From: Escherichia coli | GTDB taxonomy: Bacteria > Pseudomonadota > Gammaproteobacteria > Enterobacterales > Enterobacteriaceae | Length of the DNA stretch: 64,000 nt | Reading direction: 5' to 3' (one strand) | NCBI RefSeq assembly: GCF_965641715.1 | Contig: NZ_OZ282453.1 | Part shown: positions 1,059 to 45,462 of the stretch, piece after piece | Numbering within the stretch: position 1 is the first letter of the stretch | Layout of the letters: each line of letters begins with the position of its first letter | Translations under genes and position numbers: made by a program | Notes under the pieces: generated by a model | The model's database searches: none | Seen by the model: only the letters and a program-made list of their open reading frames with translations | Told to the model about the DNA's origin: nothing

Positions 1059-4000
1059 TTAATGGAAAATGACGTCAGGTGCGCTTAACGCCTCACTCAA
1101 ATCAAACACATCAAGTTCGGCAAAAGTGACGGATTTATTGTCACGGTACACTCGAAGAGAACGGAAGCTCATTAGCGCTTTGCTATCAACATTGTAGTGG
1201 TTAAAACCGGGTGAAAACTTAAGGACCAGCCGGTACTCACCCAGGTCATAGACAAATGCGTCCTCATAGCCTGACTCCCAGCCTTTGTATCGCATTCCCA
1301 TAAGTTGCCCAACGGTAGCGGATTTACCTTCCCAGCGAGTCAGGCTGTTACTGGTTGACTCGTCAGGTGTGAGCAGCACCGTGCGGCGCGACAACTGGCG
1401 AAAAGGCGGCATAATTTCGTAATCGGCAAAAAGCTGTGCAAATTCACTGCGCATTTCTGCTGTCATTTCTAACGGGTGGGCAATGCCAATCAGAGCATCC
1501 GCAGGAAGGTCAATGGGCTCATCCTGCGCATTGCAGAACTCCCCCTCTGCGGCCACACGAAAGGCGTTGAGTAAACGACGCGGTTCATTTGCCGGATAAA
1601 CCCCCCATATTAATCGCTGGGTAACCAGGCGGGTAAAGGGATGATTAACAAACAGAGAATGAAAATCTGCCAGCGACCAGCGTCGGGTGGTACGTAGGGC
1701 AGCTTCAAGACGCGGGAGCAGGTTTTTGCTCACCTGAGTAGCATCTTTTTTTAGCCCTTTTAGTCGGGCCAGTGCCTCGGGCGCTTTCAGTTGATCGTCA
1801 TCGGCACGCAACCGGGGAACACTTTTCTGGCGAACGTTTTGTTGATCAAAGATAACCGGGTTGAGGTTTTCATCGAAGCGAACGGTAAACTGCCGGGGAC
1901 CAAAATCAAAAATCAACGCCTGCGGATCATCAAGACCCAGTGTTGGGACTAATCTGTCCGCTAACTCTTCCTGGCTTAGCCCGCGATTTTCTGCGACCAC
2001 CTGAAGAAATTCCGCTGCGTTTTCACGTAATGAAGAGGATTTCGCCCGTTGTGATACATGATGCAGCTGTATCAGCGCCATATCATTATTCATCAAGGTA
2101 AGTATATTCAGACCAATGACAGCACGGGCAGATTTGCCTTCTTGTGGCCAGGCGAGGATCTGTGTCGTCAGATCCCGAGCCGTGCTTTCGTCACCAAAGA
2201 GACTTAACGCCAGAAATGCCCAGTTGTCTTTTGCGGGGGCACCAGCTTGTTGCCACGCAGTGAAGAGATCCCAGGCAAAAGCGGCCAGCGTTTGTGGCTG
2301 GCAAAACGTTTTCAGTTGTTCCAGACCGCTATAAAAACGTCCGCCCTGGGTAAAGCGCAGCATTTCGCCGATAATTTCCAGAGCGTCATCGGTAACAGGC
2401 TGATTATTAGTGATAAGTCGCGGCCTGGACCACATTGCCGGATGCCAGAAATCAGGGGCTTTTGGAATGCGTGCCGGGTAAATGTCCATTGGACCCTGTT
2501 TCAGTAAATGCTCCAGGGCAGGCCATACATCTGTACGCTGCCAGCGGTTTGCCACGGTTTGCAGCAATTCACCATGTCCCTGTTCGTAAAGTAAACGCAG
2601 GGCAAGTAATGCAGCTTCGCTATTATCGCTGGATTTGGTGAAGACAAGAGGGATAAGTGCAGTAGCCGTATGTTCCGGCCAATGTAAAATCCACTGGCGA
2701 GCCAGATCACGCTGCACCGCGAAACGTCGCCAGACGCGGGCAACGGGCAGGGCCAGTTCTGTTGCGCCAAAATTTAAAATTAACGGAAATGTTTCTTTTG
2801 GACGATGTAAAAAAGCCAACATCAGACCTGGTAGCGCATCCAACCCGAGGATACTGAGAAAATAGTCCTCACCCGCGAACAGATGTTTTTTCTCATTGAT
2901 ACGCAGCCAGAAGGTCAAAGCCATCTCACGCGGCAACTGTGCCAATAAATACAGGTTCCAGACACTCTTTTCCGGACGATAACGTGAGTAGTTGTCATTT
3001 TCCCATATGTTAATTAACGCTTCTATGTGACCGCTGCGGAGCGCCTGTTCTGCTAATTGTGCTTCCGGGGAGTTCCAGCCATTCAGGATCTCTTCAACCC
3101 GCCCCTGGTAGTAATGCCACTGAACAATGAGTGAATTGCGTGCAGCATCCAGTTTTCCGGGGAGTATATAATTCAGAAACAGCCATACATCATCCCCAAA
3201 ACCCAGTTCCTGTAATACAACTCGCCCACTTTTTTGTTCCATGCGTTCCGCAAGAGATTCCGTGCTGAAATAACGGGCAGACTCAGTGGAGGCAAGCCAC
3301 TCTTGTTCGCCTGGTTGCCAGTAAACTTGCGGGGTTAATTCGAGCGGTGCCAAATCAAGACGTGGAGCTGTCATTTTTTTCTTACTACGCCACGGTGGTG
3401 AAACGAGGATTTCAGGCAGATTGCTGTTATCGGTGCCATCAATAACCGGTTTGGGCGGTGCCAATAAATAACTATTCAGTACTGCCCGGGCTTGAGTACT
3501 TAACCACTGCATCACCTCTTCTGCCAGTTGTGGCTGCGATGCCATCAGCGTTTGTAACAGCGTACGCCAGTATTCATCGCGTGCTTTTTGCTGGGCAGGC
3601 AGCTTTTTGTCTTCGATGATTGGATAACCAGGGCGGGCTGGTGGTTCTTTTAACGCCAGCAGTTCTGCCAGTGCCGCGAGCGTCGCGTGGGGGAAGTTTT
3701 TACTGTATTTAGCCACACGTTGCAGGCTGGGTTTGTTTTTATCAGCCACCAGTAGCAAGGTGTGGATGACCTGCGGATGGTTAATTTGTACCAACAGACT
3801 GCCGCAATCTTCTTTATGGGCATACATCGCGAGGCGCGGAATGGCTGCCAGTCCTTGTTCGCGCAAAAGGGCGGCGCAGGCCGCGTAGCCGAAGTGGTTT
3901 TTTTGTGACATGTAGCTGGCTTCGCGATCGCTAAATACGTCCAGGCCCCAGTATCGTTCGAGTTTTTTTACCGCCGTATTATCAGTAGCAACGACCTTTA

Positions 4001-11683: not shown

Positions 11684-13717
11684 TTATTTCACCTGATGAC
11701 CCGGTTTAGCACCAGCATCCGGGCTTAGCAGGAAAATATCTTTCCCGCCAGGACCGGCAGCCATCACCATGCCTTCGGAGATACCGAAGCGCATTTTACG
11801 TGGTGCCAGGTTAGCCACCATAATGGTGTGACGACCAATCAGTACCTGCGGATCCGGGTAAGCAGAACGAATGCCAGAGAAGACATTGCGTTTTTCACCG
11901 CCGAGATCCAGCGTCAGGCGCAGCAGTTTGTCAGAACCTTCAACAAACTCTGCGTTTTCAATCAGCGCCACGCGCAGGTCAACTTTAGCGAAGTCGTCAA
12001 AGGTGATGGTTTCCTGAATCGGATCATCTGCCAGCGGGCCAGTTACCGGCGCGGCAGCTGCTTTCACTTCTTCTTTAGACGCTTCCACCAGTGCTTCAAC
12101 CTGCTTCATATCTATGCGGTTATACAGCGCCTTGAACGGATTCACTTTATGGCCCAGCAGCGGTTGCTGGATACCATCCCAGGTCAGTTCCGTATTCAGG
12201 AATGCTTCTGCGCGCTCGGTCAGTTTCGGCAGTACCGGCTTCAGGTAAGTCATCAGCACGCGGAACAGGTTTATGCCCATCGAGCAAATTGCCTGCAGGT
12301 CAGCATCGCGGCCTTCCTGTTTCGCCACCACCCACGGAGCCTGTTCATCGACATAGCGGTTAGCCAGATCAGCCAGCGCCATGATTTCGCGCACTGCTTT
12401 ACCAAATTCGCGGCTTTCCCACGCTTCACCAATCACTTCAGCGGCATCAGTGAAGGTTTTGTACAACTGCGGGTCAGCCAGTTCGCTTGCCAGCACGCCG
12501 TCAAAACGCTTGTTGATAAAGCCCGCATTACGAGAGGCCAGGTTAACCACTTTGTTAACGATATCGGCATTCACGCGCTGAACGAAATCTTCCAGGTTGA
12601 GATCGATATCATCAATGCGCGAAGAGAGTTTCGCAGTGTAGTAGTAACGCAGGCTGTCGGCGTCAAAATGATTCAGCCAGGTGCTGGCCTTAATAAAGGT
12701 GCCACGAGACTTAGACATCTTCGCGCCATTCACCGTCACATAGCCGTGAACAAACAGGTTGGTCGGCTTGCGGAAGTTGCTGCCTTCCAACATGGCAGGC
12801 CAGAACAGACTGTGGAAGTAAACGATGTCTTTGCCGATGAAGTGATACAGCTCAGCGGTGGAATCTTTCTTCCAGTATTCATCGAAGTTTACAGTGTCGC
12901 CGCGCTTGTCGCACAGATTCTTGAAAGAACCCATGTAGCCAATCGGTGCGTCCAGCCAGACGTAGAAGTATTTGCCCGGCGCGTTCGGAATTTCGAAACC
13001 GAAGTACGGTGCATCTCGGGAGATATCCCACTGTTGCAGGCCGGATTCAAACCATTCCTGCATTTTGTTGGCCACCTGCTCCTGCAACGCGCCGCTGCGA
13101 GTCCATGCCTGCAACATTTCGCTGAAAGAGGGCAGATCAAAGAAGAAGTGTTCGGAATCACGCATTACCGGCGTAGCGCCAGAAACCACCGATTTTGGTT
13201 CGATCAATTCAGTCGGGCTATATGTTGCGCCGCAGACTTCACAGTTATCGCCGTATTGATCCGGCGATTTACATTTCGGGCAGGTACCTTTCACAAAACG
13301 GTCCGGCAGGAACATGCCTTTTTCCGGATCGTACAGTTGAGAGATGGTGCGGTTTTTAATAAAACCGTTCTCTTTCAGGCGGCTGTATATAAGCTCCGAC
13401 AGCTGACGGTTCTCTTCGCTGTGCGTAGAGTGGTAATTGTCGTAGCTGATGTTAAAGCCTGCGAAATCAGTCTGATGTTCCTGACTCATTTCGCCAATCA
13501 TCTGCTCCGGGGTGATACCAAGCTGCTGAGCTTTCAGCATGATTGGCGTACCGTGGGCATCGTCGGCGCAGATGAAGTTGACTTCGTGGCCGCGCATTCG
13601 CTGGTAACGGACCCAGACATCAGCCTGGATGTGCTCCAGCATATGGCCGAGGTGGATTGAGCCGTTGGCGTACGGCAGTGCGCACGTTACCAGAATTTTC
13701 TTCGCGACTTGAGTCAT
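11684..13717 (-). CDS. metG: Methionine--tRNA ligase
   Basis: Translation [29 protein letters not shown] (HIGH motif), KMSKS present, C-terminal tRNA-binding domain; start set at MTQ rather than the track's upstream MPT. Confidence 0.95.
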
Positions 13718-13884
13718 AGTAGGCATTACTTCTTTGTAGTGAAAAGGGCTTAGATAGTACCAAATGGGGCATGGTTACGTAAGTCCTGTGCAAGCATCTT
13801 ATGATGCATTATTAGGTAAGTACTTAGCTGTTAACTTCAGGTAAACTAATAGCGATAAGTTATCTTTATAAATAAGGAGTCGGG

Positions 13885-14994
13885 ATGAACGAACAATCCC
13901 AGGCCAAATCACCAGAAGCCTTGCGCGCAATGGTCGCCGGGACACTGGCCAATTTTCAGCACCCAACCCTGAAGCATAACCTCACCACGCTGAAAGCGTT
14001 GCACCATGTCGCCTGGATGGACGACACGTTGCATGTGGAACTGGTTATGCCATTCGTCTGGCATAGCGCGTTTGAAGAGTTAAAAGAGCAATGTAGCGCC
14101 GAACTGCTGCGTATCACCGGGGCGAAAGCTATCGACTGGAAACTGTCGCACAATATCGCCACCTTAAAACGCGTGAAGAATCAGCCGGGTATTAATGGCG
14201 TGAAGAACATCATTGCGGTCAGTTCCGGTAAAGGCGGCGTGGGTAAATCCTCCACGGCGGTAAACCTGGCGCTGGCACTGGCGGCGGAAGGGGCGAAAGT
14301 CGGTATTCTGGACGCCGATATCTACGGCCCATCAATTCCCACCATGCTGGGCGCAGAAAATCAGCGTCCAACTTCGCCGGACGGTACCCATATGGCACCG
14401 ATTATGTCTCATGGCCTGGCAACCAATTCAATTGGTTATCTGGTCACTGACGACAATGCGATGGTGTGGCGTGGACCGATGGCGAGCAAGGCGTTAATGC
14501 AGATGTTGCAGGAAACCTTGTGGCCGGATCTCGACTATCTGGTGCTTGATATGCCGCCAGGCACCGGTGACATTCAATTGACGCTGGCGCAGAACATTCC
14601 GGTAACTGGTGCAGTCGTGGTCACCACCCCGCAGGACATCGCGTTGATCGATGCGAAAAAAGGCATTGTGATGTTCGAGAAAGTCGAGGTTCCGGTGCTC
14701 GGTATTGTCGAGAACATGAGTGTGCATATTTGTAGTAACTGTGGTCACCATGAACCGATTTTCGGTACCGGTGGTGCAGAGAAACTGGCTGAAAAATACC
14801 ATACACAGCTGCTGGGGCAGATGCCGTTACACATCTCCTTACGTGAGGATCTCGATAAAGGCACGCCAACGGTTATCAGCCGTCCGGAGAGCGAATTTAC
14901 CGCTATCTACCGCCAGCTGGCTGACCGCGTTGCAGCTCAGCTCTACTGGCAGGGTGAAGTTATTCCAGGCGAGATTTCCTTCCGCGCGGTCTAA
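13885..14994 (+). CDS. apbC: Fe-S cluster carrier ATPase ApbC/Mrp
   Basis: 369 aa; P-loop SGKGGVGKS; divergent from metG. Confidence 0.9.
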   Translation: MNEQSQAKSPEALRAMVAGTLANFQHPTLKHNLTTLKALHHVAWMDDTLHVELVMPFVWHSAFEELKEQCSAELLRITGAKAIDWKLSHNIATLKRVKNQPGINGVKNIIAVSSGKGGVGKSSTAVNLALALAAEGAKVGILDADIYGPSIPTMLGAENQRPTSPDGTHMAPIMSHGLATNSIGYLVTDDNAMVWRGPMASKALMQMLQETLWPDLDYLVLDMPPGTGDIQLTLAQNIPVTGAVVVTTPQDIALIDAKKGIVMFEKVEVPVLGIVENMSVHICSNCGHHEPIFGTGGAEKLAEKYHTQLLGQMPLHISLREDLDKGTPTVISRPESEFTAIYRQLADRVAAQLYWQGEVIPGEISFRAV

Positions 14995-15255
14995 CGCCTA
15001 TTAACCATTCTGGTTATTCTTCATACACCGCAGAGATGTTACATTGATGCGGTGTATTTGTTTTTGCCGCATTAATGAACACTTATTTAATACTGCGAAT
15101 ATTCAGTGGATCTTAGTCCGAAACTGTACAAAGGCGATTGATTGTGCAACCACTGTCTCTTTATCATCCCTCGTGGCTGTGTAGCGGATGTACAGCTATA
15201 GTGTGTTATGCACTCAATCTACCCGGCATAACCTTTACTACAGGGATAACGTTCA

Positions 15256-15537
15256 ATGAATAAGTATTGGTTGTCAGGAGCTGTTTTTCTTGCTTATGGA
15301 CTAGCATCACCCGCGTTCTCTTCTGATACTGCAACATTAACCATCAATGGCAGAATTAGTTCCCCTACATGCAGTATGGATGTTGTTAATAATCATCTTC
15401 AGCAACGTTGTGGGCAGTTGTTACAACGAGTTGAAACCAACTATCGTGCTTCTTCTACTGCAAAAGGCGTTACGACAGAAGTGGTAGCTGTGGGTAATAA
15501 CGACAAACGCAAAATCGTGTTAAATCGCTACGATTAA
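15256..15537 (+). CDS. yehE: Small secreted protein YehE-like (93 aa)
   Basis: Signal-peptide-like N-terminus; position upstream of the fimbrial operon. Confidence 0.55.
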   Translation: MNKYWLSGAVFLAYGLASPAFSSDTATLTINGRISSPTCSMDVVNNHLQQRCGQLLQRVETNYRASSTAKGVTTEVVAVGNNDKRKIVLNRYD

Positions 15538-15828
15538 TTTGCCAACACCGTTTTAAGCATATTTAAAAAGCCAAAATCATTCCTATGAATGATTTTGGCT
15601 TTTTTATTCATCCCATAAATGTTATTTACGGTAATTTACGGTAATTAATCAGTTTCAAAAATGTTTGTTATAGCGAATTATTTGTTGTATTTATATCGCA
15701 TTAGTTAATTTGTTTTAAATCAACAAAACAATATGTTTACATTGCGGCAACCTTTTTGATGTGAGAAATTTGTTTCCAAGAGATACAGACTCTTAACAAA
15801 ACAAAATAAACTTATTAAGGAATGCATC

Positions 15829-16371
15829 ATGAAACATTCAATTATTGCTGTCGCTGTCTTATCTTCTGTATTTATGAGTGCTGGTATTTTCGCTGCTGAA
15901 GTAGATACCGGAACTTTAACCATTAAAGGTAATATTGCTGAATCACCATGTACATTTGTCGCTGGCGGTGATTCAGTCAGTATTAATATGCCGACTGTAC
16001 CCACCACTGTATTTGATGGAAAAGCGAAATATTCAACTTATGATGGCGCGGTTGGTGTAACCAGCAGTATGCTGAAAATTACTTGTCCGAAGACTATTGA
16101 TGGCGTAAAACTTTCGTTGATCACCAACGAGAAAATTCTTGGTAATGATAAGGCAATATCCAGTAGTAATGACACAGTTGGATACTATCTCTATTTGGGA
16201 GATAGCAGTGACGTACTGGATATTTCCGCACCATTTAATATTGAAAGTTATAAAACTGCTGATGGACAATATGCAATACCGTTTAAGGCAAAATATCTGA
16301 AGTTGACTGACAGTGGTGTTGCATCTGGTACTGTTAACTCTTCATTGGTTATGCGTGTTGCCCAGGATTAA
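15829..16371 (+). CDS. yehD: Fimbrial major subunit (chaperone-usher pathway)
   Basis: 180 aa, signal peptide MKHSIIAVAVLSSVFMSAGIFA, fimbrillin-like; first gene of the yeh operon. Confidence 0.75.
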   Translation: MKHSIIAVAVLSSVFMSAGIFAAEVDTGTLTIKGNIAESPCTFVAGGDSVSINMPTVPTTVFDGKAKYSTYDGAVGVTSSMLKITCPKTIDGVKLSLITNEKILGNDKAISSSNDTVGYYLYLGDSSDVLDISAPFNIESYKTADGQYAIPFKAKYLKLTDSGVASGTVNSSLVMRVAQD

Positions 16372-16410
16372 ATATTTAAAATAATCATCTTGTTTTTTCA
16401 GTAAGTTAAA

Positions 16411-17133
16411 ATGGCCGCCATATTCATGGCGGCCAGCATAAATATAAGAGGCATTAAGATGAAAGGGTTATTATCTTTACTCATCTCTTCTATGATATTC
16501 CCCGTGCATGCCGGAATGGTTATTTTCGGGACCCGTATCATTTACCCGGCAGAGCAGAAAGAGGTCATGGTACAACTGATGAATCAGGGAAACCGCTCTT
16601 CGCTGATGCAGGCGTGGATTGATGATGGCGACACGTCTCTGCCGCCAGAAAAGATTCAGGTTCCTTTCATGTTAACGCCACCAGTAGTGAAAGTAGCGGC
16701 CAATTCTGGGCAACAAATAAAAATTAAAATCATGCCTAATAAATTACCCAGTAATAAGGAAAGTATTTTTTATCTTAATGTTCTGGATATTCCACCGAAT
16801 AGCCCAGAAGATGAAGGAAAGAATGCGTTAAAATTTGCCATGCAAAACAGAATCAAGTTGTTTTACCGACCTGCTGGTATTGCTCCGGTAAATAAAACGA
16901 CTTTTAAAAAATTACGAGTGAGTCGTAGCGGTAATAACGTAGTCATAAAAAATGACTCGCCAAATTGGGTAACGATTTCTGATGTTAAGGCTAATAACGT
17001 CAAAGTGAATTATGAAACAATCATGATTGCACCACATGAAAGTCAGAATGTTAGTGTAAAAAATAATAATGCGAATAGCTGGCAACTGACCATTATCGAT
17101 GACCACGGCAACTATATTAGTGACAAAATTTAA
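16411..17133 (+). CDS. yehC: Periplasmic fimbrial chaperone (PapD-like)
   Basis: Track ORF; signal peptide MKGLLSLLISSMIFPVHAG; PapD-like motifs (IYPAEQKE, NRIKLFYRP); true start may be the internal Met at 16459. Confidence 0.8.
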   Translation: MAAIFMAASINIRGIKMKGLLSLLISSMIFPVHAGMVIFGTRIIYPAEQKEVMVQLMNQGNRSSLMQAWIDDGDTSLPPEKIQVPFMLTPPVVKVAANSGQQIKIKIMPNKLPSNKESIFYLNVLDIPPNSPEDEGKNALKFAMQNRIKLFYRPAGIAPVNKTTFKKLRVSRSGNNVVIKNDSPNWVTISDVKANNVKVNYETIMIAPHESQNVSVKNNNANSWQLTIIDDHGNYISDKI

Positions 17134-17148
17134 TTGCAGGAGCTGCCT

Positions 17149-19629
17149 ATGTTGAGAATGACCCCACTTGCATCAGCAATAGTCGCGTTATTGCTCGGCA
17201 TTGAAGCACATGCAGCAGAAGAAACCTTTGACACCCATTTTATGATGGGAGGAATGAAAGGTGAGCAAGTAACAAATTTGCGTCTTGATGATAATCAGCC
17301 TTTACCTGGGCAGTACGACATTGATATTTATGTCAATAAACAATGGCGTGGAAAATATGAGATTATCGTCAAAGATAACCCACATGAAACTTGCCTGACG
17401 CGTGAAATTGTAAAGCGGTTAGGTATAAATAGCGATAATTTTGCACGCGAAAATCAGTGTTTAACATTTGAGCAACTTGTTCAGGGCGGAAGCTACTCCT
17501 GGGATATTGGGATTTTTCGTTTGGATCTCGCTGTTCCGCAAGCCTGGGTCGAAGAGCTGGAAAATGGTTACGTTCCGCCAGTAAACTGGGAGCGGGGAAT
17601 CAATGCGTTTTATACGTCTTATTACGTAAGTCAGTATTACAGTGACTATAAAGCCTCGGGCAATAGTAAGAGCACTTATGTGCGTTTTAACAGTGGGCTA
17701 AATTTGCTGGGATGGCAGCTGCATTCAGATGCCAGTTTTAGCAAAACGGATAATAATCCTGGTGAGTGGAAAAGCAACACACTGTTTCTGGAGCATGGAT
17801 TTTCTCAAATTCTCGGTGCGCTGCGTATTGGTGATATGTACACCTCATCCGATATATTTGATTCCGTTCGCTTCACCGGGGTTCGGTTATTTCGTGATAT
17901 GCAGATGTTGCCAAACTCGAAGCAAAATTTTACCCCACGGGTACAGGGGATTGCCCAGAGTAACGCGTTGGTAACTATTGAACAGAACGGTTTTGTCGTT
18001 TATCAGAAAGAGGTTCCACCAGGTCCGTTTTCGATTAGTGATTTGCAGTTAGCGGGCGGAGGGGCGGATCTTGATGTTAGTGTTAAGGAAGCCGATGGTT
18101 CTGTGACTACGTATCTGGTGCCTTATGCGGCAGTACCTAATATGCTGCAACCAGGTGTATCAAAATATGATTTTGCGGCAGGCCGTAGTCATATTGAAGG
18201 TGCGAGCAAGCAAAGTGATTTTGTCCAGGTCGGTTATCAGTATGGTTTTAATAATTTATTGACGCTGTATGGCGGCACGATGGTTGCTAATAATTACTAT
18301 GCCTTTACCCTCGGAACAGGTTGGAACACGCGTATTGGCGCAATTTCAGTCGATGCAACTAAATCGCACAGTAAGCAAGACAATGGTGATGTGTTTGACG
18401 GACAAAGTTATCAAATTGCCTATAACAAATTTTTGAGCCAAACATCAACACGTTTTGGTCTGGCGGCCTGGCGTTATTCGTCGCGTGATTACCGCACATT
18501 TAACGATTATGTGTGGGCAAATAATAAAGATAATTATCGTCGTGATAAAAACGATGTCTATGATATTGCCGATTATTACCAGAATGATTTTGGTCGCAAA
18601 AATAGCTTTTCCGCCAATATGAGTCAGTCATTGCCAGAAGGCTGGGGATCTGTGTCATTAAGTACTTTATGGCGTGATTACTGGGGGCGAAGCGGCAGTA
18701 GTAAAGATTATCAACTGAGTTATTCCAATAACTGGCGGCGGATAAGCTATACCCTCGCGGCAAGCCAGGCGTATGACGAGAACCACGCCGAAGAGAAACG
18801 CTTTAATATTTTTATATCGATTCCCTTTGACTGGGGCGATGACGTTACGACGCCGCGGCGGCAAATATATATGTCTAACTCAACGACCTTTGATGATCAG
18901 GGTTTTGCTTCAAACAATACCGGATTATCGGGAACCGTTGGGAACCGCGATCAGTTTAACTATGGTATCAACTTGAGCCATCAACATCAGGGAAATGAAA
19001 CGACAGCTGGGGCCAATTTGACCTGGACCGCACCGGCCGCAACAGTGAATGGCAGCTATAGTCAGTCGAGTACTTATCGACAGGTCGGAGCCAGTGTTTC
19101 AGGGGGACTGGTTGCCTGGTCTGGTGGCGTTAATCTGGCGAACCGTCTTTCCGAAACGTTTGCAGTGATGCATGCGCCGGGAATCAAAGATGCTTATGTC
19201 AATGGGCAAAAATATCGCACAACAAACCGTAATGGTGTGGTGGTGTACGACGGACTGACACCTTATCGGGAAAATCACCTGATGATGGATGTGTCGCAAA
19301 GCGATAGCGAAACAGAATTACGCGGGAATCGTAAAATGACCGCCCCTTATCGCGGCGCGGTCGTTCTGGTTGATTTTGATACCGATCAGCGTAAGCCCTG
19401 GTTTATAAAAGCATTAAGATCCGATGGACAGCCATTAACGTTTGGTTATGAAGTCAATGATATGCATGGTCATAACATTGGTGTTGTCGGCCAGGGCAGT
19501 CAGATATTTATTCGCACCAATGAAATACCGCCAGCGGTTAATGTGGCAATTGATAAGCAACAAGGGCTTTCATGCACAATCACCTTCGGTAAAGAGATTG
19601 ATGAAAGTAAAAATTATATCTGTCGGTGA
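17149..19629 (+). CDS. yehB: Fimbrial outer-membrane usher
   Basis: About 826 aa from MLRMTPLASAIVALLLG; usher-type; start set at an internal ATG of the track ORF. Confidence 0.85.
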   Translation: MLRMTPLASAIVALLLGIEAHAAEETFDTHFMMGGMKGEQVTNLRLDDNQPLPGQYDIDIYVNKQWRGKYEIIVKDNPHETCLTREIVKRLGINSDNFARENQCLTFEQLVQGGSYSWDIGIFRLDLAVPQAWVEELENGYVPPVNWERGINAFYTSYYVSQYYSDYKASGNSKSTYVRFNSGLNLLGWQLHSDASFSKTDNNPGEWKSNTLFLEHGFSQILGALRIGDMYTSSDIFDSVRFTGVRLFRDMQMLPNSKQNFTPRVQGIAQSNALVTIEQNGFVVYQKEVPPGPFSISDLQLAGGGADLDVSVKEADGSVTTYLVPYAAVPNMLQPGVSKYDFAAGRSHIEGASKQSDFVQVGYQYGFNNLLTLYGGTMVANNYYAFTLGTGWNTRIGAISVDATKSHSKQDNGDVFDGQSYQIAYNKFLSQTSTRFGLAAWRYSSRDYRTFNDYVWANNKDNYRRDKNDVYDIADYYQNDFGRKNSFSANMSQSLPEGWGSVSLSTLWRDYWGRSGSSKDYQLSYSNNWRRISYTLAASQAYDENHAEEKRFNIFISIPFDWGDDVTTPRRQIYMSNSTTFDDQGFASNNTGLSGTVGNRDQFNYGINLSHQHQGNETTAGANLTWTAPAATVNGSYSQSSTYRQVGASVSGGLVAWSGGVNLANRLSETFAVMHAPGIKDAYVNGQKYRTTNRNGVVVYDGLTPYRENHLMMDVSQSDSETELRGNRKMTAPYRGAVVLVDFDTDQRKPWFIKALRSDGQPLTFGYEVNDMHGHNIGVVGQGSQIFIRTNEIPPAVNVAIDKQQGLSCTITFGKEIDESKNYICR

Positions 19630-19639
19630 GAGGTGAAAT

Positions 19640-20674
19640 ATGATGTTCAGAAATGCAATATTACTAATATTTATATTGTGGGCTAATTTTACCTGGGCTG
19701 GATGTCGTACTACTGCATCATTAAATATTACTGATAGTATTAATGTTGGGGGGATTTTAGCGAATGAAACTTCCTTTAGTAAAAGTGTCGTGTTTACTGG
19801 GATATCTTGTGATACGAGCACGGATAAAATAGTTTATAAAAATATCCAAAGTGATTGGGTTGAAGTTGGGCCTTTTGGTAATGGCGAAAAATTAAAGGTT
19901 AAAATAGAGTCTTTAGGTAAAACCAGCGACACGATTGGGAAATCCAGCAATGCGCAGGCAGTATTACCCTATGTGGTTAAAATAGCCAGAGGTACACCTG
20001 ATTTTACTGGAGAAAGAAAATCTACCTGGTTTATTTCAGATACCGTGATTGCAAATATTGGCGGTGAGTCATCGTCATCCATCGACTTTTGGTTGGGTAT
20101 TTGTAAGGCATTGAAGTTTAACTGGTGTGTGAATTATCTCACCAGCAAACTGGCGGGGGATACTTTTACGCTTGGGTTAAGTATTTCCTATTATCCTAAA
20201 AATACGACCTGTAAGCCTGAAAACACAGTTATAAAAGTAGATGATATCGCCTTGTCCCAGCTCAGAAATCAGGGAAAGATTGCGGCGAACAGTAAGGAAG
20301 GAACAATTACGTTGAAATGTGATAATCTTTTCGGCGACAAAAAACAAGCATCGCGGAATATGGTTGTATATCTTTCTAGCAGTGACTTAGTTAAAGGAAG
20401 TAATACTATTTTGCGTGGTAAAACAGATAATGGTGTAGGGTTTGTGTTGGATCTAACAGAACCACCAAAAGGGACTGAGGCTGCCATTAAAATTTCGGCC
20501 AACGGCGATCAGGGCGCGGCGACATCATTATGGAAAACAGATAAACCAGGAGTTTCATTAAATAGCAACATTATTAATATACCTGTCATGGCCAGTTACT
20601 ATGTATATGATGAAAAAAAAGTTAAATCTGGCGTACTGGAGGCAACCGCATTAATCAACGTGAAATACGACTAA
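19640..20674 (+). CDS. yehA: Fimbrial adhesin-like tip protein
   Basis: 344 aa with signal peptide; last gene of the operon; AT-rich. Confidence 0.7.
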   Translation: MMFRNAILLIFILWANFTWAGCRTTASLNITDSINVGGILANETSFSKSVVFTGISCDTSTDKIVYKNIQSDWVEVGPFGNGEKLKVKIESLGKTSDTIGKSSNAQAVLPYVVKIARGTPDFTGERKSTWFISDTVIANIGGESSSSIDFWLGICKALKFNWCVNYLTSKLAGDTFTLGLSISYYPKNTTCKPENTVIKVDDIALSQLRNQGKIAANSKEGTITLKCDNLFGDKKQASRNMVVYLSSSDLVKGSNTILRGKTDNGVGFVLDLTEPPKGTEAAIKISANGDQGAATSLWKTDKPGVSLNSNIINIPVMASYYVYDEKKVKSGVLEATALINVKYD

Positions 20675-21311: not shown

Positions 21312-22163
21312 TTATCTCATAATACCCATAAAGCCATGCACTCCCATATACAACCCGACTAAACCAATCAACAGACTGGAAAAATAGGGGGCGCGTTTAG
21401 CGAGAGTGTTAAATCCGCTCCAGCGTTTTGCAACTTGTTGAACACTGATTGCCGCTCCAACGCCTACTGTAACCAGCGTTAATGCCAGGCCGATGCTGAA
21501 ACTGACGACCAGTGTTGCGCCCAGTGTCAGGGCTTTCAACTGAATGCAAATCAACAGCACGGTAATTGCTGCCGGGCAGGGAATAAGGCCACCTGTTAAG
21601 CCAAATAACAAAATTTGCCAGTTGGTGACCTCTCTACCATCAAAGCGTCGTTTAATGTCATTGGCATGGGCTCGTGCATGGGCATCCTGATACTCTTCGT
21701 TGTCGCCATGTTCATGATGGTGATGATGTTCGTGGTCGTGGTCGTGGTCGTGGTCTTGATGATCTTCGTGATCGTGGTGATGATGCTCATGATCATGCTC
21801 GTGCATATTCTCCAGCCAGTTGCGTTCGCCGCGCCAGGTACGCCAGAACATCCAGAACGCGGTGCCAATAATGATCACTGCGGAAATCAACTGGAGCCAC
21901 GGTTCTGCTGATTGAGCAGTAAAGCGCTTGCTGATCACCATCCCGCCAAAGGCAATCAACCAGACCACCGCGGTATGCGAAATGGTTGCTGCCAGTCCGA
22001 GCATCACCGCCTGTTTAGTGGTGCCTTTGATGGCGATGATAAACGCCGCCATCATCGTTTTTGAGTGCCCTGGTTCCAGGCCATGAAGCGCACCAAGTAA
22101 GATGGCGCTGGGGATGAAGAACCAGGCGTTTCCTTGCTGAAGAAGAGTTGTAAATTCGGTCAT
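21312..22163 (-). CDS. rcnA: Nickel/cobalt efflux permease RcnA
   Basis: 283 aa membrane protein with a central His/Asp/Glu-rich loop (HEHDHEHHHHDHEDHQDHDHDHDHEHHHHHEH). Confidence 0.9.
   Translation of the reverse strand: MTEFTTLLQQGNAWFFIPSAILLGALHGLEPGHSKTMMAAFIIAIKGTTKQAVMLGLAATISHTAVVWLIAFGGMVISKRFTAQSAEPWLQLISAVIIIGTAFWMFWRTWRGERNWLENMHEHDHEHHHHDHEDHQDHDHDHDHEHHHHHEHGDNEEYQDAHARAHANDIKRRFDGREVTNWQILLFGLTGGLIPCPAAITVLLICIQLKALTLGATLVVSFSIGLALTLVTVGVGAAISVQQVAKRWSGFNTLAKRAPYFSSLLIGLVGLYMGVHGFMGIMR
21732..21755. repeat. Hexanucleotide tandem repeat (GTGGTC x4 on the + strand) encoding the HD-repeat part of the RcnA His-rich loop
   Basis: Seen in sequence: cgtggtcgtggtcgtggtcgtggtc. Confidence 0.7.
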
Positions 22164-22200
22164 GATAATAATTCTTAGTATTAATTCGGCAATCTTATTC

Positions 22201-22235
22201 TACTCCCCCCCAGTACCTGATACTACCCCCCAGTA
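22201..22235. promoter_or_regulatory. Two inverted-repeat sites of the TACT-G6-N-AGTA type (RcnR operator) in the rcnA-rcnR intergenic region
   Basis: Seen: TACTCCCCCCCAGTA and TACTACCCCCCAGTA 5 bp apart; matches the published RcnR recognition motif as I recall it. Confidence 0.65.
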
Positions 22236-22283
22236 GATTAATAGTGCTATGATTTTTCATGTTCTTGTTAACCAGGTGTTGCC

Positions 22284-22556
22284 ATGTCTCATACAATCCG
22301 TGATAAACAGAAACTGAAAGCGCGTGCCAGTAAGATTCAGGGCCAGGTCGTGGCGCTCAAGAAAATGCTCGACGAGCCGCACGAATGCGCTGCAGTTTTA
22401 CAACAGATTGCTGCTATCCGTGGCGCGGTAAACGGTCTGATGCGGGAAGTGATTAAAGGTCATCTGACGGAACACATCGTTCACCAGGGGGATGAGCTAA
22501 AACGTGAAGAAGATCTGGATGTTGTTCTGAAGGTGCTGGATTCATATATCAAATAA
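22284..22556 (+). CDS. rcnR: Ni/Co-responsive transcriptional repressor RcnR (CsoR/RcnR family)
   Basis: 90 aa; divergent from rcnA; contains the H-x-C-containing helix typical of the family. Confidence 0.85.
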
Positions 22557-22644
22557 TTTATTAACGCGATTGTAAAACTGCCGTTTTTCCTCGTTTACAA
22601 CGGGTGCGCTGGACATTACCATCCTCCTCTGCGATTTATCATCG

Positions 22645-22778
22645 CAACCAAACGACTCGGGGTGCCCTTCTACGTGAAGGCTGAGAAATACCCGTATCAC
22701 CTGATCTGGATAATGCCAGCGTAGGGAAGTCACGGACCACCAGGTCATTGCTTCTTCACGTTATGGCAGGAGCAAACT
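22645..22778 (+). promoter_or_regulatory. TPP (THI-box) riboswitch leader of thiMD
   Basis: Sequence ggggtgcccttctacgtgaaggctgagaaatacccgtatcacctgatctggataatgccagcgtagggaa matches the classic thiM aptamer; lies immediately upstream of the thiM start. Confidence 0.8.
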
Positions 22779-23567
22779 ATGCAAGTCGACCTGCTGAGTT
22801 CCGCGCAATCTGCGCACGCGTTACACCTTTTTCACCAACATTCCCCTCTTGTGCATTGCATGACCAATGATGTGGTGCAAACCTTTACTGCCAATACCTT
22901 GCTGGCGCTCGGTGCATCGCCAGCGATGGTTATCGAAACCGAAGAGGCCAGTCAGTTTGCGGCTATCGCCAGTGCCTTGTTGATTAACGTTGGCACGCTG
23001 ACGCAGCCACGCGCACAGGCGATGCGTGCCGCCGTTGAGCAAGCAAAAAGCTCTCAAACCCCCTGGACGCTTGATCCAGTAGCGGTTGGTGCGCTCGATT
23101 ATCGTCGCCATTTTTGTCATGAACTTTTATCTTTTAAACCGGCAGCGATACGTGGTAATGCTTCGGAAATCATGGCATTAGCTGGCGTTGCTACTGGCGG
23201 ACGGGGAGTGGATACCACTGACGCGGCAGCTAATGCGATACCCGCTGCACAAACACTGGCACGGGAAACTGGCGCAATCTTCGTGGTCACTGGCGAGGTG
23301 GATTATGTTACCGATGGTCGTCGCACCGTTGGCATTCACGGCGGCGATCCGTTAATGGCCAAAGTGGTAGGAACTGGCTGTGCATTATCGGCAGTTGTCG
23401 CTGCCTGCTGTGCGTTACCAGGCGATATGCTGGAAAATGTCGCATCTGCCTGTCACTGGATGAAACAAGCCGGAGAACGCGCAGTCGCCAGAAGCGAGGG
23501 GCCAGGCAGTTTTGTTCCACATTTCCTTGATGCGCTCTGGCAATTGACGCAGGAGGTGCAGGCATGA
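22779..23567 (+). CDS. thiM: Hydroxyethylthiazole kinase
   Basis: 262 aa; ThiM-like sequence; overlaps the thiD start by 4 nt. Confidence 0.9.
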
Positions 23568-24364
23568 AACGAATTAACGCTCTGACGATTGCCGGTACTG
23601 ATCCGAGTGGTGGTGCGGGGATTCAGGCCGATCTTAAAACCTTCTCGGCACTTGGCGCTTATGGTTGCTCAGTTATTACTGCTCTGGTGGCGCAAAACAC
23701 CCGTGGCGTACAGTCGGTGTATCGCATTGAGCCTGATTTTGTCGCTGCCCAGCTCGATTCGGTGTTCAGCGATGTGCGAATCGACACCACTAAAATCGGT
23801 ATGTTGGCGGAAACCGATATTGTTGAAGCGGTGGCAGAACGGTTGCAACGTTATCAGATCCAAAACGTGGTACTCGACACCGTTATGCTGGCAAAAAGCG
23901 GCGACCCACTGCTTTCACCTTCGGCGGTTGCTACGCTGCGCAGTCGATTATTGCCACAGGTTTCATTAATAACGCCAAACTTGCCCGAAGCTGCTGCCTT
24001 GCTCGACGCGCCACACGCGCGCACCGAACAGGAAATGCTGGAACAAGGGCGATCGCTGTTGGCGATGGGCTGTGGCGCAGTGCTAATGAAAGGTGGTCAT
24101 CTGGATGATGAGCAAAGCCCGGACTGGCTGTTTACCCGCGAGGGTGAACAACGGTTTACCGCACCGCGCATTATGACCAAAAACACCCACGGCACTGGTT
24201 GTACACTCTCTGCGGCGTTGGCTGCACTACGCCCGCGCCATACAAACTGGGCTGACACCGTACAGGAGGCAAAAAGCTGGCTTTCATCGGCGTTAGCACA
24301 GGCCGACACGCTGGAAGTTGGTCACGGTATTGGTCCGGTTCACCACTTCCACGCCTGGTGGTGA
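23564..24364 (+). CDS. thiD: Hydroxymethylpyrimidine/phosphomethylpyrimidine kinase
   Basis: 266 aa; N-terminus [31 protein letters not shown] typical of ThiD/PdxK kinases. Confidence 0.9.
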
Positions 24365-30574: not shown

Positions 30575-30725
30575 TTATACGAACAACACCACCCCGTAGG
30601 ACGGATAAGGCGTTTACGCTGCATCCGGCAACCTATGCCTGATGCGACGCTGAAGCGTCTTATCATGCCTACACAGCGCTGCCACGTATGTTTACACTGC
30701 ATCCGGCATAAAATAACGCGCACTT
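30575..30725. repeat. REP/BIME-type palindromic units (several copies)
   Basis: Seen: gcctgatgcgacgctgaagcgtcttatcatgcctac and repeated gcatccggca motifs. Confidence 0.7.
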
Positions 30726-39101: not shown

Positions 39102-40115
39102 CTACCCTACTGTGGACACTGTGTGGACACTCTGAGAGCCAACACCACCACGTAGAGGATTAAGCGTTATCGCGTCCTGTAGGTACTCAGGGGCGAAGTG
39201 CGCATATGTCATTGTCTGCTCAATTCTTGAATGCCCAAGTATTCTCTGAAGCGTGATAATGTTGCCTCCGTTTATCATAAAGTGCGTGGCGAAGCTGTGC
39301 CGCAATGCGTGCGTAGCCTGACCCGGTGGTAGGTCGGGTTTCAGCTCCTTCATTAGCCGTCTGAACGCGGGATAGTTAGCATCAGTGAACAGATAGCCAC
39401 GCTTACCCGTTGTGATCATTGTTGCCAGTTCCTCGGATATAGGAACGGTTCGCGGCTTGTTGGTTTTTGTCTTAACGAAAGTGACGCGATTTTGAATGAT
39501 ATTTTCCGCTTTCAGTTTTGCTGCCTCACTCCATCTCGCGCCGGTGCTAAGGCAAAGAATCGCAATTTTTTTATTATCACCGTCCACTTTTGACAGCAGA
39601 AGCGCGATCTCCTCTTGCGTCAGGTAGCCGGTTTCTGGCTTATCCTCTTTGAGTCTTTTAAGACCTCGGAAAGGATGCTCCCCGAAAAATAGCTCCGCAT
39701 CTATCAACGCGGTAAACATCCCGCTAAGACACGTTAAATCACGATTTATACTCGATGGCTTGATGCCTTGAGAACGCCGCACAGTGCTGTATTGGCTTAT
39801 CAATGACTTAGTAATCTGAAAGGCACAAGGGTCACTGGTTATCTTTGTGAACAACTCTAACTTGCCCAGGTAATCTCGGCCGTGAGTTTCATACTTGCCT
39901 TTCAGCTCCCACCAGATTTTTGTTAGCTCTGACAGATGCCGCTTATCTGTCGGTTTCGCCAACCATTTTTTGTTGTGATGGTTGTACTGGGTATGCTTCT
40001 CGAAAGCGATAGCTTCGCTTTTCTTGTCAAATTTCCTGCGGATGCGCTTTCCGTTGCGCCCTGCAGGTCTAATGTCCACTTCATAACGACCATCATCGAG
40101 CTTTTTAACAGACAT
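39102..40115 (-). CDS. int: P2-type tyrosine integrase
   Basis: About 337 aa from MSVKKLDDGRYEVDIRPAGRNGKRIRRKF; C-terminal catalytic motifs HALRHSFATHF and LGHSRIEQTMTYAHF. Confidence 0.9.
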   Translation of the reverse strand: MSVKKLDDGRYEVDIRPAGRNGKRIRRKFDKKSEAIAFEKHTQYNHHNKKWLAKPTDKRHLSELTKIWWELKGKYETHGRDYLGKLELFTKITSDPCAFQITKSLISQYSTVRRSQGIKPSSINRDLTCLSGMFTALIDAELFFGEHPFRGLKRLKEDKPETGYLTQEEIALLLSKVDGDNKKIAILCLSTGARWSEAAKLKAENIIQNRVTFVKTKTNKPRTVPISEELATMITTGKRGYLFTDANYPAFRRLMKELKPDLPPGQATHALRHSFATHFMINGGNIITLQRILGHSRIEQTMTYAHFAPEYLQDAITLNPLRGGVGSQSVHTVSTVG

Positions 40116-40211
40116 AAAGCCTCCCGATGATGTTACTGCGTACTTCAATTTCCTGATTTAAATAACAAAAACTCACCGTGCATTTACTGCACAGATAAGC
40201 ACCGTAAATGG

Positions 40212-40508
40212 TTAGCCAGTTTTCTGGTCTGAGTGGGGTGACGTTGTTGTCTGCTGCCCAAAGTGCGCGAGAGCCGGTGCAATCTGCCCAGCTTCTGGTG
40301 ATATCGTCTCAGTCATGAACCACATGGTATATTTTTTGAACTGTGGATGATTCAAAATCTTCATCACTGCTTGTATGCCCATATCTTTTACTCCCTTCTC
40401 ATAACTAGAAAGAGAGCTATACGGAACTCCAGTTAAGTCACTGAATTCTTTTCTATTCATACGTTCCGACTCACGCATGATGGCCAGCTTCTCGTTGACG
40501 GGTATCAT
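40212..40508 (-). CDS. C: Immunity repressor C (HTH)
   Basis: About 98 aa from MIPVNEKLAIMRESERMNRKEFSDLTGVPYSSLSSYEKG; divergent from cox. Confidence 0.75.
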   Translation of the reverse strand: MIPVNEKLAIMRESERMNRKEFSDLTGVPYSSLSSYEKGVKDMGIQAVMKILNHPQFKKYTMWFMTETISPEAGQIAPALAHFGQQTTTSPHSDQKTG

Positions 40509-40591
40509 CGTAATTAACACTCCACTATTGATAGAAAAACGATAACGGAGTAATCTTCGCTTCGTTACCGCAGATTTATGGCTCCAATATG

Positions 40592-40621
40592 GCAATTAAA
40601 AGCCATTAGGAGCAATTAAAA
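40592..40621. promoter_or_regulatory. Direct repeats GCAATTAAAA x2 spaced 20 bp in the C-cox switch region; candidate C operator half-sites around the early promoter
   Basis: Seen in sequence; P2 C repressor is known to bind direct repeats flanking the early promoter -35 (recalled). Confidence 0.4.
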
Positions 40622-40643
40622 CACTAACGAGGAATAGTCACAA

Positions 40644-40919
40644 ATGAATAGGGTCATTGAGAGCGCGAGCGACGCGGTTCCGTATCAGGAGTTTGCGCGT
40701 CTTATTGGTAAAACCCCTGCTGCTGTCAAAGGGATGATTGAGAAAGGCAAACTACCGATAGTTGAGATGACTGATCCGCAGTCTACAAGTGGGAGAGCAG
40801 GGGAATACCGGGTATATCTGCCAGCATGGAACAAAGGCATGAAGATGGCCTATGACAGTCGCCCTAAAGAAATTCGTGATGGTTGGTTGATGTGGTTGGG
40901 ATTAGGTGAACCAGCATAA
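40644..40919 (+). CDS. cox: Cox excisionase/early-promoter repressor
   Basis: 91 aa; strongly P2 Cox-like by recollection (AVPYQEFARLIGKT...GRAGEYRVYLPAWN...IRDGWLMWLGLGEP). Confidence 0.85.
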   Translation: MNRVIESASDAVPYQEFARLIGKTPAAVKGMIEKGKLPIVEMTDPQSTSGRAGEYRVYLPAWNKGMKMAYDSRPKEIRDGWLMWLGLGEPA

Positions 40920-41100
40920 GGAGCCAGAAATGAAAGAGCCACGTTGTATAGCTCAGTTACTGCGTAACGAAAGTCCACGCCCGATGAAGTTCAACATCAC
41001 TCATGGTAAAGGGCGTAAAGGCATCATCATCCGCACTCGCAAGCCTGGATTTATTGCTATGGCTAAACGCTTTATGAAATCCCGAGGGATATCGTTATGA
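40906..41100 (+). CDS. Small early-operon ORF (64 aa), hypothetical
   Basis: Track ORF; position between cox and B as in P2. Confidence 0.4.
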   Translation: MNQHKEPEMKEPRCIAQLLRNESPRPMKFNITHGKGRKGIIIRTRKPGFIAMAKRFMKSRGISL

Positions 41101-41597
41101 CGGTTATGACTCTTGCATTAGTTCAAAAACAACCTGCAGCTCTACGCGTCGTTATAGGAAAGCATCTTGCGGAACCTCGCTGGCACGATACCTGTGATTT
41201 TTATAATCAGATGATGGAGCGTGACCGCTTGACTGTCTGTTTTCATGCTCGGTTAAAACAGCGTCACGCAGTAATGCGCTTTGAAGAAATGAATGATGTC
41301 GACCGCGAACGTCTGGCTTGTGCTATCGATGAGCTGCGCGCTGCTTTTTCAAAACGTCGTCAGGTTGGCGCAAGTGAATCTGCATATATTAGTTTTCTAA
41401 CGGTGGGTCAGCGCCGCTCTTTATTTCTACACGCGGGATTGAGTGAGGTCGAGTTCAATCAGCCTTACTGGCGCATTGACGAAGATGCTTGTTATTGGCG
41501 AGAGAAACTATTCCGCGCTTTGCGTGAGCTTTTTGGGTTATTTGAACACGCGCCAACGATATTAACCTCGGTAAAGCCTGAGCAGTATTTACATTAA
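41097..41597 (+). CDS. B: Replication protein B (helicase loader-like)
   Basis: 166 aa; same length and position as P2 gpB. Confidence 0.7.
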   Translation: MTVMTLALVQKQPAALRVVIGKHLAEPRWHDTCDFYNQMMERDRLTVCFHARLKQRHAVMRFEEMNDVDRERLACAIDELRAAFSKRRQVGASESAYISFLTVGQRRSLFLHAGLSEVEFNQPYWRIDEDACYWREKLFRALRELFGLFEHAPTILTSVKPEQYLH

Positions 41598-41645
41598 TTA
41601 ATCTGGATTCGTTTTATTACACGCCTTACTGCGTGGGGATTCCTT

Positions 41646-41882
41646 TTGTCTGGAGATAGGCAAATGCATAAACAAAATAAAGTGCCGACGTGTGTGCTCT
41701 CGGTACATCTGGCGCAAGCGTTGCGCGATGCGCAGCTCGATACCGCGACCCGTTTATCCTCTCATTTTGATCGCCTAATTGCGCACATCAGTAAGTTAGA
41801 ACTCAACCGCACCGAGATCATCGAGCTATTGGGGCAAGAGTCCGAAAAATTGCACAACTCAATTTTTCATTGTGCTTGCTAA
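41646..41882 (+). CDS. Small early ORF (78 aa), hypothetical
   Basis: Track ORF; P2 has small ORFs here. Confidence 0.4.
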   Translation: MSGDRQMHKQNKVPTCVLSVHLAQALRDAQLDTATRLSSHFDRLIAHISKLELNRTEIIELLGQESEKLHNSIFHCAC

Positions 41883-41904
41883 TCAATTTTAGAAGGAGAC
41901 AAAA

Positions 41905-42180
41905 ATGAGTATCCGTATCGAGATAAATCATCAGTATGTAGTTACAAGCGATCGCTACCAGTTCATTTTGCAGGAAAAGAAAGTGGCGACTGCTGGAAAA
42001 AATAAAGGTAGCGAATGGCTTGATACTGTCGGGTATTACCCGACGATTCAAAAACTGATTTCTGGTCTGGTACTACATGACCTTTTAAATGGCGGTGCTG
42101 ATAGTTTTGCGGCGTTGGGTGAGCAGGTCGAGCAGTTGGGACTGCAATGTCAGACCGCGTTTTGTGCTGATGGCCGTTGA
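41905..42180 (+). CDS. Small early ORF (91 aa), hypothetical
   Basis: Track ORF. Confidence 0.4.
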   Translation: MSIRIEINHQYVVTSDRYQFILQEKKVATAGKNKGSEWLDTVGYYPTIQKLISGLVLHDLLNGGADSFAALGEQVEQLGLQCQTAFCADGR

Positions 42181-44461: not shown

Positions 44462-44925
44462 TGAGCAAAATCCATGAGTTAAAAATTGCACCTGAGTATT
44501 TTAACTCTGTGATATCTCAGGAAAAACGTGCTGAATTTCGTCTCAATGACCGCGATTATTCTAGCGGTGATATTCTCGGGTTGCATGAATGGGAACCGGT
44601 AAACAGATATACCGGGAAACGTGTATCAGTGAGGGTGACAAACGTTACGGATTTATCTGAATGGGCGGAAAATTATGTGATGCTGAGTTTTCAGTTAATG
44701 ATGCCAGATGTCCAGTGCGGTATGTCCCTAATGAACTGGAAAGAGTTAAGCGAGAAGGGGCTTGTTTTCAGAGTTAATCACGAAATTCTACACCCGTTAG
44801 GGCTGGCTATTAGATATGAAACACTTAACAGCGTTTCTGGTAGGGCTTACATCGCTGATGATGGTGTCTGGCAATATTCCGACAAGTTGGTCGCAGATGC
44901 TAAAAAAAATGGGTGGTTAAAATGA
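44461..44925 (+). CDS. Hypothetical phage protein (154 aa), possible PUA/ASCH-like fold
   Basis: Start ATG overlaps the A stop; N-terminus MSKIHELKIAPEYFNSVISQEKRAEFRLNDRDY. Confidence 0.5.
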   Translation: MSKIHELKIAPEYFNSVISQEKRAEFRLNDRDYSSGDILGLHEWEPVNRYTGKRVSVRVTNVTDLSEWAENYVMLSFQLMMPDVQCGMSLMNWKELSEKGLVFRVNHEILHPLGLAIRYETLNSVSGRAYIADDGVWQYSDKLVADAKKNGWLK

Positions 44926-45161
44926 GTCATATGCGAATGATGCCAGTGCCGCCGATACATTCAACGCAAAACATTAAGCTGATGGCCGTCGTACATCGCC
45001 TGCAACAAATTATGATTAACGAGAATCTGACCCCTGACGAACTGGTCGGGTGTGCCGGTGTCGTCCGGGATAATCACCGCAAATACAGCGATATCAGCAA
45101 TCCGAAAATTGAGGCGTTTCGGCCACCAAATATGGCAAAGCCACCACCGCGTCGACCATAG
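44913..45161 (+). CDS. Hypothetical small ORF (82 aa)
   Basis: Track ORF only. Confidence 0.3.
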   Translation: MVKMSHMRMMPVPPIHSTQNIKLMAVVHRLQQIMINENLTPDELVGCAGVVRDNHRKYSDISNPKIEAFRPPNMAKPPPRRP

Positions 45162-45443: not shown

Positions 45444-45462
45444 GGCGAGGCGGGGTAAGCGT
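45444..45462. other. Candidate cos (cohesive-end) site
   Basis: Seen: GGCGAGGCGGGGTAAGCGT; the first 12 nt match the P2/186 cohesive end GGCGAGGCGGGGAAAGCAC as I recall it; sits in a GC-rich, structured non-coding stretch. Confidence 0.5.

Follow-up and report, generated by a model that had tools for sequence, protein, structure and literature searches.

The window (the whole 64,000-nt stretch of Escherichia coli DNA analysed here) carries the E. coli gene neighbourhood rcnA / rcnR-thiMD-yegX, and the element considered in this study lies in the intergenic region between rcnR and thiM (Table 1). Two kinase genes follow it on the same strand: thiM, whose start lies 35 nt beyond the covariance-model match described below, and then thiD, which overlaps thiM by 4 nt. 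Of 5426 complete E. coli genomes, 5424 contain a match to a 244-nt query taken from this region (22557-22800). The histidine-rich loop of the neighbouring RcnA varies in length: the protein has 283 aa in the window, 281 aa in strain 300709, 274 aa in K-12 and 265 aa in strain CE-O153H30.

A consensus scan of the intergenic region found a putative sigma-70 promoter for thiMD. For K-12, Bastet et al. count from the transcription start site and place thiM codons 9-40 at nt 174-271 (PMC5499598); codon 9 at nt 174 places the AUG at about nt 150-152, and hence +1 at about window position 22628-22630. From this numbering and the consensus match we infer a thiMD transcription start at that position, which fits the promoter-like site TTTACA-17-TACCAT. 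The regulatory region would then probably begin with the mRNA some 15 nt upstream of 22645.

Table 1. Coordinates of the features discussed in the text (window numbering, except for the last three rows, which refer to other genomes).
Feature	Position	Strand	Basis or remark
rcnA	21312-22163	-	upstream of the riboswitch
rcnR	22284-22556	+	upstream of the riboswitch
Putative sigma-70 promoter of thiMD (-35 TTTACA 22594-22599, 17-nt spacer, -10 TACCAT 22617-22622)	22594-22622	+	consensus scan, 9/12 matches
TPP aptamer, structured core	P1 5' (22653/4) to P1 3' (22731/2)	+	mapped from model alignment
P1	GACU 22654-57 x AGUC 22728-31	+	Rfam model alignment
P2	CGGG 22658-61 x CCCG 22691-94	+	Rfam model alignment
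P3 (apical loop 22671-75)	22664-70 x 22676-81	+	Rfam model alignment
J3/2 with CUGAGA	22681-86	+	Rfam model alignment
P4	CCUG 22700-03 x UAGG 22722-25	+	Rfam model alignment
P5	CUGG 22706-09 x CCAG 22716-19	+	Rfam model alignment
L5	22710-15	+	Rfam model alignment
Single-base difference, A in the window, G in K-12 (G29 of the literature)	22672	+	alignment
Predicted ON-state anti-sequestering stem	22714-22768	+	unconstrained minimum-free-energy fold
Anti-Shine-Dalgarno UUGCUUCU	22748-22755	+	pairs with AGGAGCAA when the aptamer is enforced
Shine-Dalgarno AGGAG	22768-22772	+	read from sequence; 6 nt upstream of ATG
thiM, hydroxyethylthiazole kinase, 262 aa, regulated gene	22779-23567	+	TIGR00694 337 bits (cut-off 256); NF006830 330 bits
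Region matching the published Rho-dependent attenuator in thiM	22815-22891	+	composition, and mapping from PMC5499598
thiD, hydroxymethylpyrimidine/phosphomethylpyrimidine kinase, second operon gene	23564-24364	+	TIGR00097 363 bits (cut-off 205)
82-bp segment (nearly the whole aptamer), island-flanking direct repeat elsewhere, unoccupied here	22645-22726		alignment of both CE-O153H30 repeat copies and the O157:H7 junction; island gene maps
Island or related locus, NZ_CP172336.1 (L126)	39694-47522		
Island or related locus, NZ_CP010315.1 (L127)	11905-19733		
Island or related locus, NZ_CP041416.1 (L128)	1105-2571		

A scan of the whole 64-kb window with the covariance models of Rfam 15, run at gathering thresholds, matched the TPP family RF00059 at 22648-22744 on the plus strand with 71.2 bits and an E-value of 5e-12, against a gathering score of 54.3 bits. 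The alignment is not truncated, covering model positions 1-105 of 105, and deviates from the consensus in two respects only: the optional P3a hairpin, which the thiM aptamer is without, shows as an 11-position deletion, and the P3 loop has a 3-nt insertion. The first-pass annotation had recognised a classic THI-box (TPP) aptamer before thiM from the letters alone and had named a covariance-model scan as its check; the full-length match above the gathering score, with thiM directly downstream on the same strand, bears this out. The element at 22645-22778 is almost certainly the E. coli thiM thiamine-pyrophosphate (TPP) riboswitch, situated in the 5' leader of the thiMD mRNA, and we found no evidence that contradicts this explanation. 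The same 97 nt are labelled "riboswitch / TPP riboswitch" by RefSeq in other E. coli genomes. The thiM riboswitch is already known, reportedly first described by Winkler, Nahvi and Breaker in 2002, with crystal structures of its aptamer said to have followed from Serganov et al. and from Edwards and Ferre-D'Amare in 2006; its presence here is an ordinary finding, and the riboswitch itself adds nothing new.

Since a mechanically produced list of open reading frames shows a 68-aa frame on the minus strand across the region (22542-22748), it could be argued that the match is a matter of chance or a relic, and that the region is plain intergenic spacer or part of that frame. We consider the probability of this to be negligible: the match is structured and full-length at the E-value given above, the element is near-invariant across Enterobacterales with compensatory changes in its stems, and RefSeq annotates a riboswitch and no CDS at this place. 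The frame itself was rejected, being purely mechanical and unannotated in any genome inspected. Two further Rfam families match elsewhere in the window. The type I antitoxin sRNA OrzO-P (RF02083) matches in full length at 164-237 on the minus strand, scoring 88.8 bits (gathering score 60), which points to a toxin-antitoxin locus of the zor/orz type where the window begins, and the nucleoid-associated ncRNA 4 (naRNA4/CssrE, RF02564) matches at 30599-30669 on the plus strand, scoring 64.5 bits (gathering score 59.5).

Mapping of the model alignment onto the thiM riboswitch recovered the three-way junction architecture, with P1 as the closing helix, a P2-P3 arm and a P4-P5 arm. When the mapped pairs were checked, the helices were found to consist of standard pairs save in two places, namely the outermost P1 pair (C22653-A22732) and a bulged C22667 in P3. 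Both ligand-contact cores are present and identical to those of K-12: the CUGAGA of J3/2, and ACCUGAUCUGGAUAAUGCCAGCGUAGGGAA in the P4-P5 arm (22699-22728). In the literature, CUGAGA in J3/2 is assigned the role of pyrimidine sensor and the P4-P5 arm that of pyrophosphate sensor (PMC1920254, and crystal structures cited there), and direct, selective TPP binding has been published for the K-12 RNA, which is one loop base apart from the window (PMC1920254).

K-12 is the strain in which the riboswitch was characterised experimentally, both by probing of the expression domain (PMC1920254) and through the link to Rho (PMC5499598). K-12 MG1655 shares with the window the locus, gene order, linker, anti-Shine-Dalgarno, Shine-Dalgarno and start codon, and differs at three positions over 22557-22800, namely 22603 (G in the window, C in K-12), 22672 (A and G, respectively) and 22797 (A and G); over 22604-22796 the two are identical except at 22672, and thiM carries a few further changes, at least one of them synonymous. 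Position 22603 falls in the promoter spacer and 22797 in thiM codon 7 (Ser in the window, Gly in K-12), and all the differences fall outside the helices and the conserved core positions. The base at 22672 belongs to the apical pentaloop of P3, which reads UACGU in the window and UGCGU in K-12, and occupies an insert state of the Rfam alignment.

Within E. coli, A22672 is a rare variant: among the matches listed, strain H22 alone contains a full-length 100% match to the surrounding 65-mer, for which 11 of 5405 records reach at least 99%, and no complete E. coli genome matches the 244-nt region 22557-22800 at 100%. Such rarity might be read as a private G-to-A change that alters or disables this copy of the riboswitch. 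We regard this as very unlikely, given that the base lies in the loop at an insert state, that the RF00059 score is 71.2 bits with either base (the window, K-12 and H22 all score the same), and that all helices, the CUGAGA and the P4-P5 core are intact. The P3 loop moreover varies widely and differs freely among genera, with UACGU itself present in three thiM leaders of other genera (L018, L023 and L116). We conclude from these comparisons of sequence that the change is probably neutral.

The first-pass annotation had also placed an expression platform between the aptamer and the ATG, and it is there that the anti-Shine-Dalgarno and the Shine-Dalgarno sequences are found. All three truncations (22645-22781, 22645-22790 and 22645-22800) gave a free minimum-free-energy fold in which a long stem joins the 3' half of the aptamer (22714-22732) to 22749-22768 and leaves the Shine-Dalgarno open. 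The stem consists of UGCCA paired with UGGCA, GCGU with ACGU, GGGAAG (22724-22729) with CUUCUU (22751-22756) and CA with UG, is capped by a hairpin of GACC (22735-22738) with GGUC (22743-22746), and leaves the central Shine-Dalgarno bases with an unpaired probability of ~0.7-0.9 in the free ensemble. When the aptamer is enforced, UUGCUUCU is instead engaged with AGGAGCAA (22768-22775), and the Shine-Dalgarno has an unpaired probability of 0.00-0.03; when more coding sequence is added to the enforced fold, CAGGUC (22741-22746) is paired with GACCUG (22788-22793) inside thiM. The anti-Shine-Dalgarno can thus pair either with the Shine-Dalgarno or with part of the aptamer, the two being mutually exclusive, as in a switch that controls translation by sequestering the Shine-Dalgarno.

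The modelled folds reproduce the published thiM switch. In the numbering of the probing literature, where nt 1 corresponds to window position 22644, nt 71-86 pair with nt 108-125 in the TPP-free RNA and the Shine-Dalgarno (G126-G129) is reactive, and TPP lowers the chemical reactivity of G126, G127 and G129 (PMC1920254). Bastet et al. described an ON-state anti-sequestering stem and an OFF state that sequesters both the ribosome binding site and the AUG, and assigned residues 151-172 to the expression platform (PMC5499598); by our mapping, the published OFF-state structure takes in the first ~22 nt of the thiM open reading frame (22780-22801). The interval 22645-22778 proposed in the first-pass annotation therefore stands insofar as it covers the aptamer, linker, anti-Shine-Dalgarno and Shine-Dalgarno up to the base before the ATG (22779), and falls short at both ends, as the leader probably starts further upstream and the platform passes the start codon.

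According to published work on the K-12 RNA, one loop base away from the present sequence, the switch would operate as follows. At low TPP, the anti-Shine-Dalgarno region would be taken up in pairing with the 3' half of the aptamer, leaving the Shine-Dalgarno free so that thiM and thiD can be translated; with TPP bound, the aptamer would close (P1-P5) and release the anti-Shine-Dalgarno, which would then pair with the Shine-Dalgarno and block ribosome binding. The stability of the whole leader gave no signal relative to shuffled sequence (z = -0.73), a value to be expected of a bistable RNA, so that thermodynamics alone would not single out this region; whole-leader stability was dropped as a criterion, since exceptional stability is not required of an RNA that alternates between two folds. 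The unconstrained fold also contains a long-range pairing of the 5' strand of P1/P2 (GACUCGG, 22654-22660) with thiM codons 6-8 (CUGAGUU, 22794-22800), in which A22797 of the window gives a U-A pair where the G of K-12 would give U-G.

The aptamer class is shared with riboswitches of the terminator type, and Bacillus-type TPP riboswitches have the same aptamer fold and ligand, with an intrinsic terminator hairpin as their output. That the thiM riboswitch acts like most of these, through a classical intrinsic terminator of hairpin and U-tract, is nevertheless extremely improbable. Between aptamer and ATG we found no G+C-rich hairpin with U-tract, nor any terminator-like site on either strand over 22200-23000; the sequence after the aptamer instead holds the anti-Shine-Dalgarno complementary to the Shine-Dalgarno, and the published data describe translational control together with Rho-dependent termination (PMC5499598). 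Eukaryotic THIC riboswitches, again with the same aptamer fold and ligand, have splice-site choice as their output. The other TPP riboswitches of E. coli, in the thiC (thiCEFSGH) and thiB/tbpA leaders, share the Rfam family and the ligand with thiM but have other downstream genes and other expression platforms. The thiC riboswitch also controls transcription directly. For the thiC and thiB/tbpA leaders, two publications describe an action on translation initiation as well, with effects at the mRNA level (PMC11487190, PMC5234074).

Sequestration of the Shine-Dalgarno by the thiM riboswitch is known to be coupled to transcription. In K-12, translational repression induced by TPP exposes a rut site near nt 200, followed by Rho-dependent termination at nt 231, 237 and 262, which needs thiM codons 20-34, and thiD mRNA is reported to fall with TPP (PMC5499598). 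On the window, the rut site maps to approximately 22820-22850, the published stops to approximately 22860, 22866 and 22891 and codons 20-34 to 22836-22880, and the attenuator region differs from K-12 at two positions only, 22856 and 22889. In 25-nt windows centred on 22820-22850, C amounts to 32-36% and G to 4-16%, against 26% C and 28% G in the whole gene; thiM thus contains early on a C-rich, G-poor, rut-like stretch, as belongs to Rho attenuation of the indirect type. An untranslated thiM message would expose this C-rich Rho loading site around codons 15-34, leading to early termination and less thiMD mRNA, with Rho dependence of the present copy carried over from the published work on K-12.

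To compare the thiM leaders of other Enterobacterales, a DNA-pattern scan of a species-representative genome collection was used, which yielded 120 loci with a TPP core lacking P3a. In 64 of these thiM lies immediately downstream, and these 64 span Escherichia (including E. albertii), Kluyvera, Citrobacter, Enterobacter, Kosakonia, Pantoea, Erwinia, Serratia, Pectobacterium, Edwardsiella and Hafnia. The aptamer is almost invariant among thiM leaders, an observation that is uninformative within the 64-locus set because the scan pattern fixed the aptamer cores. Features left unconstrained by the scan include the P3 stem, which occurs in compensatory alternatives (CCCUUC/GAAGG and CCCCAUC/GAUGGG), and the expression platform, in which a CUUCU-type anti-Shine-Dalgarno and a G-rich Shine-Dalgarno are conserved: all 63 leaders with a recognisable Shine-Dalgarno contain a CUUCU-like complement to it of at least 5 nt. 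In the Escherichia/Kluyvera/Enterobacter group, the pairs flanking this helix covary (UUG/CAA, n = 5; UCG/CGA, n = 7; AUCG/CGAU, n = 2), although these leaders are related by descent and the counts are not independent events.

The linker length and the register of the sequestering helix vary by clade. In the closer relatives thiM begins 48-57 nt after the aptamer core, whereas in the most distant ones the distance, as measured by tblastn, reaches ~100 nt. The Pantoea/Erwinia group has a 9-bp hairpin of UUCUUGAUC with GGUUGGGAG around a 3-nt loop in a different register, and several leaders of the Citrobacter/Kosakonia type, examined by eye, have a longer helix between the linker and the sequence just upstream of the Shine-Dalgarno, overlapping the latter. 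When the ensemble accessibility of the Shine-Dalgarno was calculated with and without an enforced aptamer, 4 of 65 leaders passed both thresholds, and only Escherichia-like leaders gave a clean contrast. With no clean contrast in most of the distant orthologues, the comparative support comes from the anti-Shine-Dalgarno motif and the covarying pairs and not from energies. A listing of minimum-free-energy partners across the leaders proved too noisy and was replaced by a direct search for anti-Shine-Dalgarno:Shine-Dalgarno complementarity, flanks included; in the MAFFT alignment of the platform, the outer pairs showed one-base offsets in the Enterobacter rows, and pairs were therefore counted per sequence instead.

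A different aspect of the locus is evident in other E. coli genomes, where ~700 of the 5424 matching genomes match the 244-nt query only in part. In strain CE-O153H30, an island of ~7.7 kb lies between two copies of the TPP aptamer; its genes encode a tyrosine integrase (PF00589), an HNH endonuclease, a recombinase-family protein and hypothetical proteins. At either end of the island stands one copy of a perfect direct repeat of 82 nt, identical to the 82-bp segment of Table 1. The aptamer copy on the rcnR side keeps the native promoter and has a damaged P1, scoring 61.3 bits, with the integrase gene 66 nt downstream of it, and the copy on the thiM side is complete. Strains 789 and STEC711 show the same arrangement, the STEC711 integrase being 96% identical with different cargo, and the island integrase is present in 147 of 5426 genomes.

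Related structures are seen in O157:H7 strain TX 265-1 (L004:231-2503, NZ_CP038290.1), where homology to the window starts exactly at 22645 and ~2.2 kb of foreign DNA lies between rcnR and the riboswitch. The same ~2.2 kb, with OMP-like, hypothetical and HTH-like coding sequences, is found in several hundred other genomes, and its position implies that the K-12-type thiM promoter is displaced in those strains. The right junction of this insert, at 22645, matches the right end of the integrase island, and the insert looks like a remnant of the island. In strain GMF054 (L129), a second integrase, of 81% identity, directly follows such a remnant, which suggests tandem accretion. As a separate observation, E. 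coli O157 strain Al Ain (NZ_CP043539.1) matches the query only from 22684 on, with no riboswitch annotated under the match, and seems to have lost the 5' half of the aptamer or to carry other sequence in its place.

From these junctions, we consider there to be an even chance that a family of tyrosine-integrase islands uses the 82 bp as its chromosomal attachment site, with the aptamer as a target in the manner of tRNA or tmRNA genes; in the window, this site is empty. The tRNA and tmRNA genes are the usual targets of such integration. By bringing its own copy of the aptamer, the island would rebuild the thiM-side riboswitch behind island DNA, and expression of the integrase could come under the native thiM promoter and perhaps under the control of TPP. 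In the library searched, we found no literature on riboswitch-targeted integration at thiM, and catalogues of islands and integrases may still record such cases. Aptamer DNA that doubles as an attachment site could be of interest to researchers of integrase target choice, a matter that lies outside the content of the window itself.

The thiM riboswitch is among the best-studied riboswitches and is already annotated by genome pipelines, which leaves little discovery value in finding it again; its confirmation serves chiefly as a calibration, in that the letters alone sufficed for a real regulatory RNA to be recognised, at coordinates that are essentially right. By analogy with K-12, this copy would bind TPP, repress translation and bring about Rho-dependent termination. 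The riboswitch accounts for the 222 nt that separate rcnR from thiM, and predicts that expression of thiMD in this strain would be repressible by thiamine.
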